Assembly: GCA_046563655.1 (NCBI GenBank)
Contig: CM102290.1
Span: 9,610,001-9,674,000 of the forward strand
Direction of reading: 5' to 3'
Origin: Yuukianura sp. NJ FZ-2021
Taxonomy: Eukaryota
Length of the DNA: 64,000 nt
This document shows positions 55,510 through 64,000 of this stretch, one piece after another. A program made the position numbers and the translations under genes. Position 1 is the first letter of the stretch; each line of letters begins with the position of its first letter. A model generated the notes under the pieces. The model was not told the DNA's origin. It saw only the letters and a list, made by a program, of their open reading frames with translations, and did no database searches.

Positions 55510-57104
55510 CTAACAGAGAGAAACGGGGAGAAAACAGCTGGTAGTGAGACTACAGTCTCTCCTAAAATACTGAATTAATTGCTGTCATAAGTGTTACATC
55601 TCTATAGTTTGCACACACTAACAGATAGAAAATGTTCTCCTGTATCCTTGGATCAGTGTTCAGTGTGAATCAGTGACCGTAATCAGTGTTTAATCAATCA
55701 ATCAAAACTGTTCTTACAAACAACCTGTAAGTCTTAAGTTCCCATTTGAAGGGCGAGATGGAGCTGGATATCAATCCAGCTAAGGATAATGGTATTATTA
55801 TACCATTCTTACCAAAGTATCGATTACTCGATTACCTCAGTGCAGTGTCTGATTTGGTAGATCCTAAATCAATTACTGATGCGGGAATGTTCGGCCCTCG
55901 CACAGTTGCAATCTTTTTTGAAAATGAAGATGATATGATGAAATCAATTGGTTCTGGAACAATCAAAGTTGGAGACTCCTGTTTTTCGGTGGCACCCTAT
56001 ACTAGATCTTATTCGAAGATTTTCATGCGAAATGTACCGCCATTCATTCCTGAAGAGCTAATTGTCACTTCACTAAGTGGATTTGGTAAGGTTCTTGCCA
56101 CATCTAAGATTAAGTTCCGTTCACTGCCGGAAAAGCTCAAGCATATCAACACGTTTATGCGTGAGGCTACTATCGAACTTACTGTTCAAAAATCAGAAAT
56201 CCCAAGGTCAACCATCCTGAATTACGAAGGTCGTCAGTACACCATACAACTTGACACAGAAGCACAGCGATGCCATTTCTGCAATGGAACTGGCCACTTC
56301 GCTAGTAAGTGCAAGAAGAAACTTGCTGCACATTCTACAAATGATCCGGGGAACGTTCCAAAAATACCAGTTGCCAATATCAGCACTTCAGTTTCCATTC
56401 CAACATGGGCTGACCTTGCAAAATCGAAAGGAGTTCTCAACGTTCAAAATACTACTCAATCTGAAGGTGAAATAACCTCCGAATTTGACACTGACGAAAT
56501 GGAAAAAGACGAAGATGGCTTTGAGAGGGTACGGAAACGAACAAAAAGATCACCACGAAAAGTTAAAAAACCGGACAGCATTGGCCTTTCCAGTCAAATT
56601 CGACCACCGATCTTCAGTGGCCTTTCAACTTCAACTCTTCAACATGCCCCTGTACTTCCATCATCTTCAAATAATTCCGAAGTTGAATCTGATCGCGATG
56701 ACTCTTTGATTGAAAACGTTCAACTAGAGCCACTTCCAGAAATTAATCTTCCACAAGGTGTCCAGATCGAAGACTTAGTTTCTTTTCTTTCATCCTTCAA
56801 ATCAGGAAGAGTAACAAAGAAAAAAATTGAATCAACCCTCATCACTGTTGCTGTTACCCGGGCAAAAATGAAAACGACACTCCTACTTCTTAAAAATGAA
56901 ATTGCTCCTACATCGCATCCTGTTTTGCGTAAGATTTTAGAAAAGTTACTTAGAAATTGGCCTGAAGAATTTCAGTCTATCTAAATACAAACCAATACAA
57001 TGATATTGTCTGTATATAGCTTTAACACTCAGGGCTTAAAAAATCTACAATCCAGGATAAAGTTAGTTAAACTATTAAATTTATATAAACCTGAAAAAAA
57101 AAAA
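55510..57104 (+). mobile_element. Tx1/L1-clade non-LTR retroelement: intact ORF1, ORF2 truncated and poly(A)-tailed; 5' boundary approximate
   Basis: 5' region with repeated TCAGT; ORF1 55758-56984; ATG at 57000 opens MILSVYSFNTQGLKN..RIKLVKLLNLYKP (APE endonuclease N-terminus); A11 at 57094-57104. Confidence 0.85.
55758..56984 (+). CDS. Tx1-type ORF1p (RRM-like region + CCHC zinc knuckle), 408 aa, intronless
   Basis: VAIFF, KIFMRNVPPFIPEELIVTSLSGFGKV, CHFCNGTGHFASKC, PTWADL and DGFERVRKR are typical non-LTR ORF1 motifs. Confidence 0.85.
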   Translation: MELDINPAKDNGIIIPFLPKYRLLDYLSAVSDLVDPKSITDAGMFGPRTVAIFFENEDDMMKSIGSGTIKVGDSCFSVAPYTRSYSKIFMRNVPPFIPEELIVTSLSGFGKVLATSKIKFRSLPEKLKHINTFMREATIELTVQKSEIPRSTILNYEGRQYTIQLDTEAQRCHFCNGTGHFASKCKKKLAAHSTNDPGNVPKIPVANISTSVSIPTWADLAKSKGVLNVQNTTQSEGEITSEFDTDEMEKDEDGFERVRKRTKRSPRKVKKPDSIGLSSQIRPPIFSGLSTSTLQHAPVLPSSSNNSEVESDRDDSLIENVQLEPLPEINLPQGVQIEDLVSFLSSFKSGRVTKKKIESTLITVAVTRAKMKTTLLLLKNEIAPTSHPVLRKILEKLLRNWPEEFQSI

Positions 57105-58854: not shown

Positions 58855-61800
58855 ATGTTGAAGAAATCGTCACCGAAGGTAGCAGCCTACAACCCGGCGG
58901 CGGAGGTAGTAGGGTTTACCAAAAGAAGTCCAGAGGAGATCCGGGAAATTGAACAACGATTGAATGCATTCAAAAGATCAAGTATGAACTGATATCCACA
59001 AGGAGCTTTTAAAAGCATAAATAAGGAACGGGAACTTTATATTCATTTAGACTTTGGAAATGAACTTTACGGAAATGTTAGTTGCGTTTGCAGGCACGAC
59101 AGGTTGATGTGACACCTTTTTGCTGTTTCAGGGAGGACCAATATAGTTACCGATGAAAAGAAAATCAAACTGGAAAAAAAGGTGGAGAGGGATGAAGCCA
59201 TGGAAGAATTTCTTGCTCAACAACCTCCGGCAATTATACCAGTCCTTCAGTCGGAAACTGAGTGTGACCGTATCGCCGCCGAAGGTGAATGCAACCCGAG
59301 GTGTTGGTCAGCAGATAATCTCGAGACCTTTCTTAAAGCCAACGATTTGGAACAAGCCGCTACGAAGCTGAGGTCACTCGTAAGACACGTCTCACACAAC
59401 TTGCACACTTCAATGCACAGGATTTGAGTTGTTGTAGTCTGCTAATGTTCAGCTCTAATCTGTTATTCTACTAGCGCATGACTGGAGAAACCTTCTTACA
59501 ACAAAACCGCCAAACCCTTGGGATACAGCTGGATATTCGTATGGTGATTACCTTGATGAAGTTTATCAATATGCTAAGGAAAATCGAGCATTCTTACCAA
59601 GAGAAAAGAAAACCAAAACTTGAAGACTTCTTCCCCACGCCTGAGATGATCGCTGCGATTCCTCCAGTTCCAGTGCTCAAAAGGAAGGTGGGTGCAGAGA
59701 TGTACGAATCCATCATGGCCAAACGGCAAAAGTTTCTACAGCAGGAGGGAATCACTAGACAACTTACCCCAACATTACACATGCCTCTTCTCCCGAACAT
59801 CAGCCCTGAACTCCGTCTCCAAGGACAAACCTCTCGGTATCTTGGGCGGCCTAAGATTTGCTACAAGTGTAAGGGAGAAGGCCATTTGGGAAGAGAATGT
59901 ACTCAACAAAATACTGGCAAGCACTCCTTTGACGATTTTCAATTCAAAAATTCCAATTAAATTCAAGCGACCATAAGTAATACTTTAACCCTTTTTTAGG
60001 TAAATCTGGATACTCTAATTCGCAAACAGTTGCAAACGACGATGAAGATTGGGGAGTATCGGATTCATCGCAGGCGTCGCTGCCAAAACCCCAGAACATA
60101 TCTGCTGCTGATGATGACGATTGGGGAGCTCCAGCCACCACTCCAGCTGCTGGCAAGCCAAAACCAGTCGCTACTGCGACTGACGATGACTGGGATGCTC
60201 CAACTTCATCCAATACAGGCAGTACGCAACACACTACGTCCATTGCTTCTGCTACAACTGTCGATGATGATGGCTGGGGTAGTTCTACCCCGACAGCTTC
60301 AGCTCTTTCAACTCCACGTTCAAGTTTTGATAGTGGTAACAGAAGTTTCAATGGTAGAGGTGGCGGAAGCTTCAGTGGGGGAAGAGGGCGTGGGGGAGGT
60401 CGTGGTGGCGGTCCTGGAAGTGGACCGCGAGTTTGTTTTCGTTGTAACCAAGAAGGTCATATGTCTAGGGAATGTCCGACTGGTAAGTTTTTTCGTTATT
60501 ATAGATGAATTGAAAATAGTTCAAGTCATTGTTTTGCTATAGGAGGATCTAACAACGGGCCTCGTGTAGGAGGTGGGAAAAAGATTTGTTACAATTGCCA
60601 ACAAGAAGGCCATCTTGGTCGGGAATGTCCAGAACCAAAGAACTATAACAGTAATGTCAACATAAGACAAACACAAGTATTAACATGTATAAAACGAGAC
60701 TAATGAAATGAAATGTACATGTTAGGTAACAGGCAGTATTCTAAACCACGACAGGACGACTGGGGAACTTCAGCTGCTACCCAGCCAAACCTCGTCGCTA
60801 CGGCCACCGACGATGACTGGGATGCTCCAATGACCACTCCAGATCCCGTCAAGCCAAAAGCTGATGCTGCTGCAACAGATGATGACTGGGATACCCCAGC
60901 AACCACTCCAACTCCTGCTAAGCCAAAAGCAGCCAATGCTGCTTCAACAGGCGATGATGACTGGGATTCGCCAGCCCCAGCGGTGCCAAGTACAGGAAGC
61001 GCTCAACTTACCACATCAACACCTTCTTCCGCGTCTGTCAATGATGATGACGGCTGGGGCATGCCTACCGTTTCAACATCATCTACTCCAAATACAAGCT
61101 TTGATGGCGGTAACAGAAGCTTCAACAGCAGAGGTCGCGGAAGCTTCAGTGGTGGAAGAGGGCGTGGGGGTGGTCGTGGTGGCGGGCCTGGAAGTGGACC
61201 GCGAGTTTGTTTTCGTTGTAACCAAGAAGGTCATATGTCTAGGGAATGTCCGAATGGTAAGTTTTTTCGTTATAATAGATGAAATTAAAATAGTTCAAGT
61301 CATTGTTTTGCTATAGGAGGATCTAACAACGGGCCTCGTGTAGGAGGTGGGAAAAAGATTTGTTACAATTGCCAACAAGAAGGCCACCTTGGTCGGGAAT
61401 GTCCAGAACCCAAGAACTACAACAGTAATGTTAACATAAGACAAACACAAGTATTAACATGTGTAAAACGACACTAATGAAATGAAATGTACATTTTAGG
61501 TAACAGGCAGTATTCTAAACCACGACAGGACGACTGGGGAACTTCAGCTGCTACCCAGCCAAACCTCGTCGCTACGGCAACCGACGATGACTGGGATGCT
61601 CCAATGACCACTCCAGATCCCGTCAAGCCAAAAGCTGATGCTGCTGCAACAGATGATGACTGGGATACCCCAGCAACCACTCCAACTCCTGCTAAGCCAA
61701 AAGCAGCCAATGCTGCTTCAACAGGCGATGATGACTGGGATTCGCCAGCCCCAGCGGTGTCCAGTACAGGAACTGCTCAACTTACTACATCAACACCTTC

Positions 61801-63440
61801 TACGTCTGTCAATGATGATGACGGCTGGGGCATGCCTACCGTTTCAACATCATCTACTCCAAATACAAGCTTTGATGGCGGTAACAGAAGCTTCAACGGC
61901 AGGGGCCGCGGCAGCTTCAGTGGTGAAAGAGGGCGTGGGGGTGGTCGTGGTGGCGGCCCTGGAAGTGGACCTCGAGTTTGTTTTCGCTGTAACCAGGAAG
62001 GTCACATGTCGTGGGAATGTCCGAGCGGTAAGTTTTTTTTAGTTGTAATAAATATTAATATAGAATTTGAGTTTAATCTTGAATACTACGTTTTGTATAG
62101 GAGGTTCTAACAACGGGCCACGTGTAGGAGGCGGTAAAAAGATTTGTTACAATTGCCAACAGGAAGGCCACCTTGGTCGGGAATGTCCAGAACCCAAGAA
62201 CTACAACAGTAATGTTAACACAAGTATTAAAATGTGTAATTTAATGACACTAATGAAATGAAATGTACATTCTAGGCAACAGGCAGTATTCTAAACCACG
62301 ACAGGACGACTGGGGAACTTCAGCTGCTACCCAGCCAAACCTCGTCGCTACGGCAACCGACGATGACTGGGATGCTCCAATGACCACTCCAGATCCCGTC
62401 AATCCAAAAGCTGGTGCTGCTGCAACAGATGATGACTGGGATTCGCCAGCCCCAGCGGTGTCCAGTACAGGAACTGCTCAACTTACTACATCAACACCTT
62501 CTACGTCTGTCAATGATGATGACGGCTGGGGCATGCCTACCGTTTCAACATCATCTACTCCAAATACAAGCTTTGATGGCGGTAACAGAAGCTTCAACAG
62601 CAGAGGTCGCGGAAGCTTCAGTGGTGGAAGAGGGCGTGGGGGTGGTCGTGGTGGCGGGCCTGGAAGTGGACCGCGAGTTTGTTTTCGTTGTAACCAAGAA
62701 GGTCATATGTCTAGGGAATGTCCGAATGGTAAGTTTTTTCGTTATAATAAATGAAATAGAAAATAGTTCAAGTCACTGTTTTGCTTTAGGAGGTTCTAAC
62801 AACGGGCCCCGTGTAGGAGGTGGTAAAAAGATTTGTTACAATTGTCAACAAGAAGGCCACCTTGGTCGGGAATGTCCAGAACCCAAGAACTACAACAGTA
62901 ATGTTAACACAAGTATTAAAATGTGTAATTTAATGACACTAATGAAATGAAATGTACATTCTAGGCAACAGGCAGTATTCTAAACCACGACAGGACGACT
63001 GGGGAACTTCAGCTGCTACCCAGTCAAACCTCGTCGCTACGGCCACCGACGATGACTGGGATGCTCCAATGACCACTCCAGATCCCGTCAAGCCAAAAGC
63101 TGATGCTGCTGCAACAGATGATGACTGGGATACCCCAGCAACCACTCCAACTCCTGCTAAGACAAAAGCAGCCAATGCTGCTGCAACAGGCGATGATGAC
63201 TGGGATTCGCCAGTCCCAGCGGTGTCCAGTACAGGAGCTGCTCAACTTACTACATCAACACCTTCTACGTCTGTCAATGATGATGACGGCTGGGGCATGC
63301 CTACCGTTTCACCTTCATCTACTCCAAATACAAGCTTTGATGGCGGTAACAGAAGCTTCAACGGCAGAGGCCGCGGAAGCTTCAGTGAAGGAAGAGGTCG
63401 TGGGGGAGGTCGTGGCGGCGGCCCTGGAAGTGGACCATGA
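58855..63440 (+). CDS. SAM-like domain + five repeated DDDW/RGG/CCHC modules; ~1,239-aa model, no catalytic domain
   Basis: Exons 58855-58981, 59132-59379, 59475-59916, 60000-60482, 60543-60650, 60726-61256, 61317-61424, 61500-62027, 62101-62208, 62276-62728, 62790-62897, 62965-63440 sum to 3,720 nt in one open frame. SAM-like PRCWSADNLETFL..LRSLRMTGETFL..LMKFINML; 9 CX2CX4HX4C knuckles before the stop. Confidence 0.75.
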
Positions 63441-63492
63441 GTTTGTTTTCGTTGTAACAAGGAAGATCACATGTCCTGGGAATGTCCGGAAG
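60000..63492 (+). repeat. Intragenic tandem array of two-exon units (period ~690-776 bp; four complete units plus a fifth A exon)
   Basis: Unit starts at 60000, 60726, 61500, 62276 and 62965. Exons and most introns are near-identical between units. Confidence 0.95.
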
Positions 63493-63869
63493 GTAACTTG
63501 TTTCGTTTTAAAAGATAAAATGACAGTTAAGGTAACCCAATAAGTTGTATATTTATTTACTTGCATTTACCCCAATAAGTGCATAGTTCGTTGTACTACA
63601 CTAAAATAGCTAAGGTTTTTAGTTTCTAAAAATGAATTCCCATTAAGTTAAATGGCACTAGATCCAGAAGATTTGGAAATGAATTATTTAAGGATAAGAA
63701 TGTGTTGGACTTGAGTAGTTTTGTTGTCCTCCATCCAAGGGGGCTGTGTTTGCTCTACGGTGGAATTATAAATAGGCTTGTTCCAGGGCTTCTGCCCGGT
63801 CGATCGAGCAATCGAACGGTCGAGGAGGGAAAAACTTTTTAAAAATTACTTATAGGAGTTGGGGAACGA

Positions 63870-63963: not shown

Positions 63964-64000
63964 CTATGAAACAAAACGTAAAATTAGTTTTTATAAGGCT

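Follow-up and report, generated by a model that had tools for sequence, protein, structure and literature searches.

We use the sequence of a 64,000-nucleotide (nt) stretch of contig CM102290.1 from Yuukianura sp. NJ FZ-2021, hereafter the window, to study a predicted gene at 58855-63440 on its plus strand. The product appears to join an N-terminal helical domain to a tandem array of modules resembling the N-terminus of the helicase Vasa (DDX4). A preliminary description of this locus had proposed a 12-exon model that stays in frame for 3,720 nt, and joining the exons bears this out: the 3,720 nt read as 1,239 codons followed by one terminal TGA. The ATG at 58855 sits three codons past an in-frame stop. 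The features of the gene are as follows.

58855..58981, plus strand: exon 1, with the ATG start and an MLKK N-terminus, ending in phase 1; its start, GTATG donor and phase recur in the metagenome locus L001
59132..59379, plus strand: exon 2, a charged helical stretch and then the conserved block C..AEGECNPRCWS..FL..NDL..A.KL
59475..59916, plus strand: exon 3, the second half of a proposed SAM-like domain, a basic linker, the first CCHC knuckle and a GC donor
59601-59618, plus strand: EKRKPK, in exon 3
59676-59690, plus strand: LKRKV, in exon 3
59859-59900, plus strand: first CCHC knuckle, in exon 3 (zf-CCHC, E 8.7e-6)
60000..60650, plus strand: module 1 (exon 4, 60000-60482; exon 5, 60543-60650), four acidic-Trp motifs, RGG box at 60353-60412, knuckles at 60434-60475 and 60587-60628, zf-CCHC in both exons
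60726..61424, plus strand: module 2 (exon 6, 60726-61256; exon 7, 61317-61424), five acidic-Trp motifs, RGG box at 61130-61186, knuckles at 61208-61249 and 61361-61402
61500..62208, plus strand: module 3 (exon 8, 61500-62027; exon 9, 62101-62208), five acidic-Trp motifs, RGG box at 61898-61957, knuckles at 61979-62020 and 62145-62186
62276..62897, plus strand: module 4 (exon 10, 62276-62728; exon 11, 62790-62897), four acidic-Trp motifs, RGG box at 62602-62658, knuckles at 62680-62721 and 62834-62875
62965..63440, plus strand: module 5 (exon 12), truncated, five acidic-Trp motifs, RGG box at 63390-63422, TGA at 63438-63440
63441..63492, plus strand: degenerate tenth knuckle VCFRCNKEDHMSWECPE, past the stop; a donor-like GTAACT follows at 63493, where homology to the other modules ends

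A predicted zinc-knuckle gene under selection

A regular expression recovers all nine of the CCHC knuckles that had been claimed for the model, and the Pfam profile zf-CCHC (PF00098) scores 26-35 bits on each of the five knuckle-bearing exon translations (six pieces were scanned). With membership defined by the spacing C-x2-C-x4-H-x4-C and a profile score above 20.8 bits, the predicted product is a zf-CCHC protein. The acidic tryptophan (Trp) motifs and the RGG content noted earlier are likewise present: 23 of the 25 Trp residues lie in D/E-rich DDW(G/D) or DDDGWG motifs, and the protein holds five RGG boxes. The array is 14% Gly, 11% Ser, 9% Asp and 2.5% Trp, with Thr, Pro, Ala and Ser together making up 39%.

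The introns are short (60-150 nt), and 10 of the 11 are GT-AG; the remaining one, after exon 3, is GC-AG with the donor GCAAGC at 59917. This intron (59917-59999, exon-intron junction G/GCAAGC) has a counterpart with a normal GT donor in L001, while in a second metagenome locus, L002, exon 3 runs on into the first module with no intron in between.

To ask how the coding sequence has been maintained, we compare the copies of the 35-codon exon that carries the second knuckle of each module (exon B). Across its four copies all nine variable sites are synonymous third positions, and each of the six pairwise comparisons gives 0 nonsynonymous against 3-8 synonymous differences, the pattern expected if purifying selection acts on this exon, as we conclude that it does. 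Because variation in exon B is exclusively synonymous, and because the architecture is conserved in L001 and L002, we take the locus to be a real, translated gene, that is, a functional protein-coding animal gene as judged from its sequence.

A tandem array of two-exon modules

What repeats in the genome is a two-exon module: exon A contains the acidic-Trp motifs, the RGG box and the module's first knuckle, and exon B contains a Gly-rich stretch and the second knuckle. Both exons are flanked by phase-1 introns, so that whole modules could be duplicated or skipped with the reading frame kept. The preliminary description counted five modules. Four of these are complete, although module 4 is without one 25-codon sub-repeat; the fifth is truncated, with a TGA in place of the CGA (Arg) of the other copies, no exon B, and a first knuckle that falls past the stop and is degenerate.

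At the DNA level, modules 2-5 are 90-97% identical among themselves, introns included, and module 1 is 68-80% identical to them. Since the high identity of modules 2-5 extends through their introns, the array is best described as a recent or homogenised tandem duplication. The relationship of module 1 to module 2 is a mosaic. Exon B of module 1 and its flanking introns (60483-60725) are nearly identical to those of module 2 (61257-61499), with 57 of 60 and 71 of 75 bases matching; in exon A of the same two modules 77 of 148 aligned codons differ, 48 of them nonsynonymously. This mosaic suggests unequal crossing-over or gene conversion with a boundary inside the module.

As a separate observation on the DNA contigs, the loose ends of the contigs of run X3, at 58976, 61323, 62395, 63468 and 63664, all start with GATC, which suggests a proximity-ligation (restriction-junction) library and not a feature of the locus.

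The modules resemble the N-terminus of Vasa

A search with exon A of module 2 against 5.8 billion sequences matches nine proteins, among them three tick or mite proteins named DDX4 or Vasa and a DEAD-domain protein of Ixodes persulcatus that is annotated as hypothetical; the best module matches are cladoceran and mite/tick proteins. The database match to the DDX4-like protein of the mite Dinothrombium tinctorium (P0004) has an E-value of 1.4e-6, and a pairwise alignment places the module collinearly on residues 1-106 of that protein, with 41% identity (E 9e-12) over a span that takes in the Trp motifs, an RGRG and the first knuckle. Because this alignment is collinear over the first 106 residues of P0004, each module is, as far as its sequence can say, a full copy of a Vasa-type N-terminal region. 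The likeness to invertebrate Vasa N-termini that the preliminary description had drawn from the letters is thus upheld by database matches. An origin of the knuckles in a transposon gag was also considered and rejected: the knuckles are of the Vasa type and the module is collinear with Vasa.

The array does not by itself make the product a Vasa. A DEAD-box core was taken to consist of the Q motif and motifs I, Ia, II (DEAD), III and VI, together with Pfam DEAD and Helicase_C domains. Seven motif patterns run over six frames of the whole 64-kb window give 0 matches, and Pfam on the exons returns zf-CCHC with neither DEAD nor Helicase_C. Because this core was looked for and not found in the window, we place the predicted product outside the Vasa family.

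The stop codon and the sequence past it

The TGA at 63438-63440 speaks for the absence of a helicase. Two organisms are represented by runs X1, X2 and X5, and in their DNA contigs no alternative letter occurs at these positions. We considered a sequencing error here and rejected it, as contigs of both organisms have the same TGA.

Past the stop, the 17 codons of the degenerate knuckle carry 3-4 nonsynonymous against 2 synonymous differences, and the conserved knuckle Gly is lost. We read this as relaxed constraint, with the knuckle decaying once outside the predicted frame. Between the stop and the end of the window, 560 nt hold no recognisable exon and no DEAD-box or flanking motif. From these data the gene product probably contains no helicase, and the label 'helicase-less' in the preliminary description accordingly stands as likely for what the window covers.

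Two homologous loci share the architecture

To find relatives of the N-terminal part, we search exon 3 with phmmer against 1.84 billion representative sequences. Of its 59 hits, only P0010, a metagenome fragment with 42% identity to exon 3 (E 3.7e-10), covers the part outside the knuckle. The remaining 58 match the knuckle region (their best stretch ending at query residues 143-146), apart from one low-complexity match at 35-64. A scan of metagenome contigs then gives the contig of P0010, which is L001, and a second contig, L002; further loci from the scan (L003-L021) match the knuckle only and are left out.

L001 and L002 are 31-49% identical to the window gene in amino acids (aa), and in the three-locus alignment the exon 2 block has 20 invariant columns. 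Both loci keep the order of the window: AEG(E/D)CNPRAWS..F...NDL, an intron at the same point, (R/K)xxG(E/D)xLLKLN, an EKRKPK-like stretch, KRK and a knuckle. After that first knuckle come D/E-W-G motifs and an RGG box, and then another two knuckles. By our reading, introns 1-3 of L001 match those of the window both in position and in phase (1, 0, 1), and the L001 module aligns to module 2 of the window with 37% identity (E 3e-14). In L002, the second half of the proposed SAM-like domain, the first knuckle, Trp motifs, an RGG box and the next knuckle lie in one uninterrupted open reading frame (ORF) of 260 aa, which runs on into a second module. The preliminary description had treated the N-terminal exons and the array as one gene, and at the DNA level this single frame agrees with it.

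No annotated relative was found when exon 3, or a profile of exon 2, was searched against longer proteins (E <= 1 for the profile), in keeping with the earlier remark that the architecture is not that of a named family. We also found no paper on this architecture in the literature, a search whose coverage excluded most subscription journals, so that its silence says little. Annotated proteomes appear to lack the family, whose architecture is a new one assembled from known pieces.

The N-terminal helical domain

The preliminary description called the N-terminal domain SAM-like. Its proposed first half starts at about 59257 in exon 2 and its second half runs from 59475 to about 59597 in exon 3, with a phase-0 intron between them; this intron splits the domain in all three loci. 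We search the domain as separate unspliced halves. In L002 the splitting intron (744-827, 84 nt) is in frame and contains two stops, whereas its counterparts in the window (95 nt) and in L001 are not in frame; for L002 it was therefore possible to translate straight through the intron, with X at its two stops (the read-through below).

What points to a SAM fold comes mostly from the homologues. The second half of L001 matches SAM_2 and the L002 read-through matches SAM_PNT, and both matches lie where the second half of the domain is expected. In a protein atlas, the nearest named clusters of both window halves are SAM families, at 0.75-0.81 (SAM_2 at 0.78 for the exon 2 half). Each of these results is soft, and several others count against a SAM-like head. 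The SAM_2 match covers positions 28-59 of 66 at E 0.16 and 12.6 bits, below the cut-off of 20.5, and the SAM_PNT match covers positions 41-80 of 83 at E 0.005 and 17.2 bits, below the cut-off of 24; atlas scores under 0.9 serve as leads only. The window halves themselves give no Pfam hit at E <= 10, and sequence profile searches of both halves against the PDB give 0 hits at E <= 10. A different family, LisH (PF08513), matches the first half of L001 (E 0.0068, 16.8 bits against a cut-off of 21.6) and gives nothing in the window or L002. Finally, the AlphaFold2 check that had been suggested for the spliced protein was made on the L002 read-through with four fragment rows: a SAM domain folds as a compact five-helix bundle, and the model is all-helical, but with a mean predicted local distance difference test score (pLDDT) of 53.4 it is not trustworthy and says little either way. 

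On balance the SAM-like assignment is the best reading of this domain and a fairly likely one, held up weakly by sub-threshold matches of the SAM clan (SAM_1, SAM_2, SAM_PNT) in two homologues and by the atlas leads, and gaining nothing from Pfam on the window itself. The alternative is a LisH-type or other small helical self-association module. Downstream of the domain, the two conserved basic stretches, EKRKPK and KRK, may serve as a signal for nuclear localisation or as a site of docking.

A candidate scaffold that uses the Vasa N-terminus without the helicase

The explanation that we favour is that the locus is a functional gene for a 1,239-aa non-enzymatic ribonucleoprotein (RNP) adaptor or scaffold, with a SAM-like head and tandem copies of the Vasa N-terminus and no helicase. 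We give this reading a probability of about one half. The protein would begin with the helical domain, most likely a SAM-like fold that self-associates or binds an RNA hairpin. A basic linker with one knuckle would follow, and then an array equivalent to four and a half Vasa/DDX4 N-terminal copies, whose frame closes ahead of any helicase. With its nine knuckles and five RGG boxes the protein would show multivalent, low-specificity binding of single-stranded RNA. The RG repeats, if methylated, could dock Tudor domains as they do in Vasa, and the 23 acidic-Trp motifs could engage the same reader as Vasa's own motif. The N-terminal domain would multimerise or target the protein, or might bind an RNA hairpin as in ZCCHC14. 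Taken together, these parts would make an RNP adaptor or a scaffold for condensates, free of enzymatic activity and acting alongside Vasa or in competition with it.

The pieces of this proposal have precedents in Vasa itself. Tudor domains dock on Vasa through its methylated RGG repeats, and Vasa function, including localisation and piRNA functions, requires an acidic motif at the C-terminus along with an invariant Trp (PMC10378496). The loss of knuckles in vertebrate and insect Vasa has been proposed to coincide with unknown zinc-knuckle cofactors (PMC6333804, citing Gustafson & Wessel 2010), and an adaptor or scaffold beside Vasa fits this proposal of knuckles acting in trans where Vasa has none. 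From the homology to Vasa we infer expression in the germ line, and a role with germ granules, Argonaute or Tudor proteins is conceivable by the same analogy.

A stronger version, which we think improbable, is that the protein is a trans-acting 'Vasa N-terminus': a self-associating SAM-like hub with four to five copies of the sticky elements of the Vasa tail, which would serve as a dedicated nucleator or adaptor of germ granules, uncoupled from the helicase. If true, it would be a concrete example of zinc-knuckle cofactors acting beside a knuckle-less Vasa. Within it, a bolder possibility is that the acidic-Trp array may recruit PIWI/Argonaute or kinesin-1 light chain, which would tie RNP condensation to small-RNA loading or to transport.

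Several alternatives have to be weighed against the scaffold reading. In one, the locus would be the 5' portion of a DEAD-box helicase gene of the vasa type, with its helicase exons beyond position 64000 and transcripts that bypass the TGA, for instance by skipping exon 12. The modules are homologous to a Vasa N-terminus that in every named Vasa match is followed by DEAD and Helicase_C, and a number of features at the 3' end speak for such a gene and tell against a complete, helicase-free one. The window ends 560 nt after the stop, so the helicase negative covers the window only. Those 560 nt contain no canonical poly(A) signal (no AATAAA or ATTAAA; GATAAA at 63514 and TATAAA at 63767 only), and the donor-like GTAACT is kept at 63493. 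As all module introns are in phase 1, skipping of exon 12 could leave the frame intact and let an isoform run on to downstream exons. The contigs of L001 and L002 are short, break off within the array and are silent on the 3' end, and the gene model and its splicing are read from DNA alone, whose contigs show no joints. What makes us consider such a gene unlikely nonetheless is that contigs of two organisms share the in-frame TGA, with relaxed constraint and a lost knuckle Gly just past it; that the introns here are only 60-150 nt, yet the 560 nt downstream pass without a DEAD-box or flanking motif; and that the N-terminal domain is in no retrieved Vasa and searches with exons 2 and 3 gave no long protein.

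In another alternative, the gene could encode a general CNBP-like nucleic-acid chaperone or RNA adaptor with no special link to the germ line, to small RNA or to a Vasa partner, its resemblance reflecting shared low-complexity ancestry. It is true that the 58 exon 3 matches other than P0010 are mostly by knuckle, in multi-knuckle proteins of 68-730 aa, and that helicase-less proteins with RGG, CCHC and DDDWG elements exist under unrelated names (P0001, below). This too we find doubtful, as the collinear match over acidic-Trp motifs, RGRG and knuckle falls on the first 106 residues of a Vasa, and CNBP is not known to have acidic-Trp spacers or an N-terminal helical domain. The array could also be decaying or inflated by the assembly, so that the functional part is the N-terminus with one or two modules and the rest are young duplicates on the way to pseudogenes, or an artefact. 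Modules 2-5 are 90-97% identical with introns included, module 5 is already truncated by a stop and module 3 has the changes R>W and G>E; no DNA contig spans the array, within which the short-read contigs break, and this leaves the copy number of five, a part of the favoured reading, as a count from the assembly only. Set against decay are the 0 nonsynonymous and nine synonymous sites over four copies of exon B, the frame and splice sites kept in all eight module exons upstream of the stop, and the entry of L002 into a second module. We regard this last explanation as very improbable, and return to the adaptor or scaffold as the preferred one.

Condensation of germ granules, docking of Tudor proteins and capture of RNA are all attributed to the disordered N-terminus of Vasa, whose function is hard to separate from that of the helicase. 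A selected gene that carries only the Vasa N-terminus, about fivefold, on a putative oligomerisation domain would be a natural separation-of-function experiment, and it would bring within reach of experiment the older suggestion that another protein can take over, in trans, what the zinc knuckles do for Vasa. The array also illustrates how symmetric phase-1 exon pairs allow tandem amplification of a whole functional module.

Neighbouring sequence in the window

Just upstream of the gene, a 417-aa open frame at 55731-56984 on the plus strand carries a single CCHC-like knuckle, CHFCNGTGHFASKC; it matches no Pfam family at E <= 0.01 and may be a gag-like or orphan gene. Judged by eye from translations, the long frames of positions 1-55000 resemble what we take to be ordinary animal housekeeping genes: presumably a catalase-like gene at about 13.8-14.8 kb, a ribosomal-protein-S3-like gene at about 20 kb and a glycogen-synthase-like gene at about 36.3-38 kb. 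A frame at about 53.0-53.7 kb on the minus strand is presumably a papain-type protease, again by eye. At 47.5-49 kb lies a leucine-rich-repeat (LRR) protein with weak LRR Pfam hits.

Comparison with known systems

The predicted protein shares parts of its design with several known systems. CNBP/ZNF9-type proteins, like the window gene, combine several CCHC knuckles with an RGG box and are non-enzymatic binders of RNA or single-stranded DNA built from small domains, and many multi-knuckle proteins matched exon 3 by the knuckle alone. CNBP is not known to have acidic-Trp spacers, a helical domain at its N-terminus or exons duplicated in tandem as modules. ZCCHC14, the vertebrate SAM and CCHC adaptor of TENT4, offers a parallel for a non-enzymatic RNA adaptor made of a SAM domain, a knuckle and long disorder, a parallel that holds if the putative fold here is indeed SAM-like. 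ZCCHC14 is not known to have acidic-Trp/RGG modules, and searches with exons 2 and 3 detected no sequence relationship to it. Its SAM domain binds a CNGGN pentaloop (PMC11508327).

Two further classes bear on the Trp motifs. Proteins with Argonaute (Ago) hooks, such as GW182/TNRC6, NRPE1 and Tetrahymena CnjBp, expose many Trp residues beside Gly in disorder rich in Gly, Ser, Asp, Glu and Asn, and CnjBp combines GW repeats with CCHC knuckles. In the window gene, by contrast, 13 of the 23 motifs are DDDWD without Gly beside the Trp and 10 have Gly, and the motif is the acidic-Trp of Vasa; the likeness to Ago hooks is one of composition only. Such Trp/Gly-rich disorder has been described for Ago-binding platforms (PMC2910046), and CnjBp co-purifies with the Argonaute Twi1p (PMC3519685). 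In the W-acidic cargo adaptors of kinesin-1, Asp/Glu residues flank a Trp and Leu/Met precedes it by two positions; this motif binds the groove of the tetratricopeptide repeats (TPR) of kinesin light chain (KLC) (PMC6214655). The D-W-D core of these adaptors is present in 13 window motifs, but there Asp, and not Leu/Met, stands two residues before the Trp.

The top database match to exon A of module 2 (E 6e-18) is a 'ZC3H18-like' protein of Daphnia pulicaria, P0001 (XP_046639036.1), and covers 9% of the query, namely the knuckle. Like the window gene it is helicase-less and has RGG boxes, knuckles of the CFNCNEEGHMSRECP type and DDDWG motifs. Unlike it, the order is reversed, with knuckles before DDDWG, and the N-terminus is unrelated, rich in Arg, Asp and Glu and without a SAM-like part; from its sequence we judge that P0001 is not an orthologue. 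As an observation on its own, P0001 has RGG boxes along with three knuckles of the Vasa type, two DDDWG motifs and no helicase, and it may mean either that Vasa-tail-like segments outside helicases are more widespread or that the gene model is chimeric.

Invertebrate Vasa/DDX4 (P0004; Rhipicephalus microplus P0002; Ixodes P0006) differs from the window gene, which has no DEAD or Helicase_C in frame or anywhere in the window, which repeats the unit about 4.5 times in tandem, and whose helical SAM-like domain and basic linker occur in no retrieved Vasa. The likeness is in the N-terminus, where both have, in one and the same order, acidic-Trp motifs in Ser/Thr/Pro-rich disorder, an RG/RGG box and knuckles, and where the knuckles are of one common type, CF(K/R)CN(Q/E)EGHMSR(E/D)CP.

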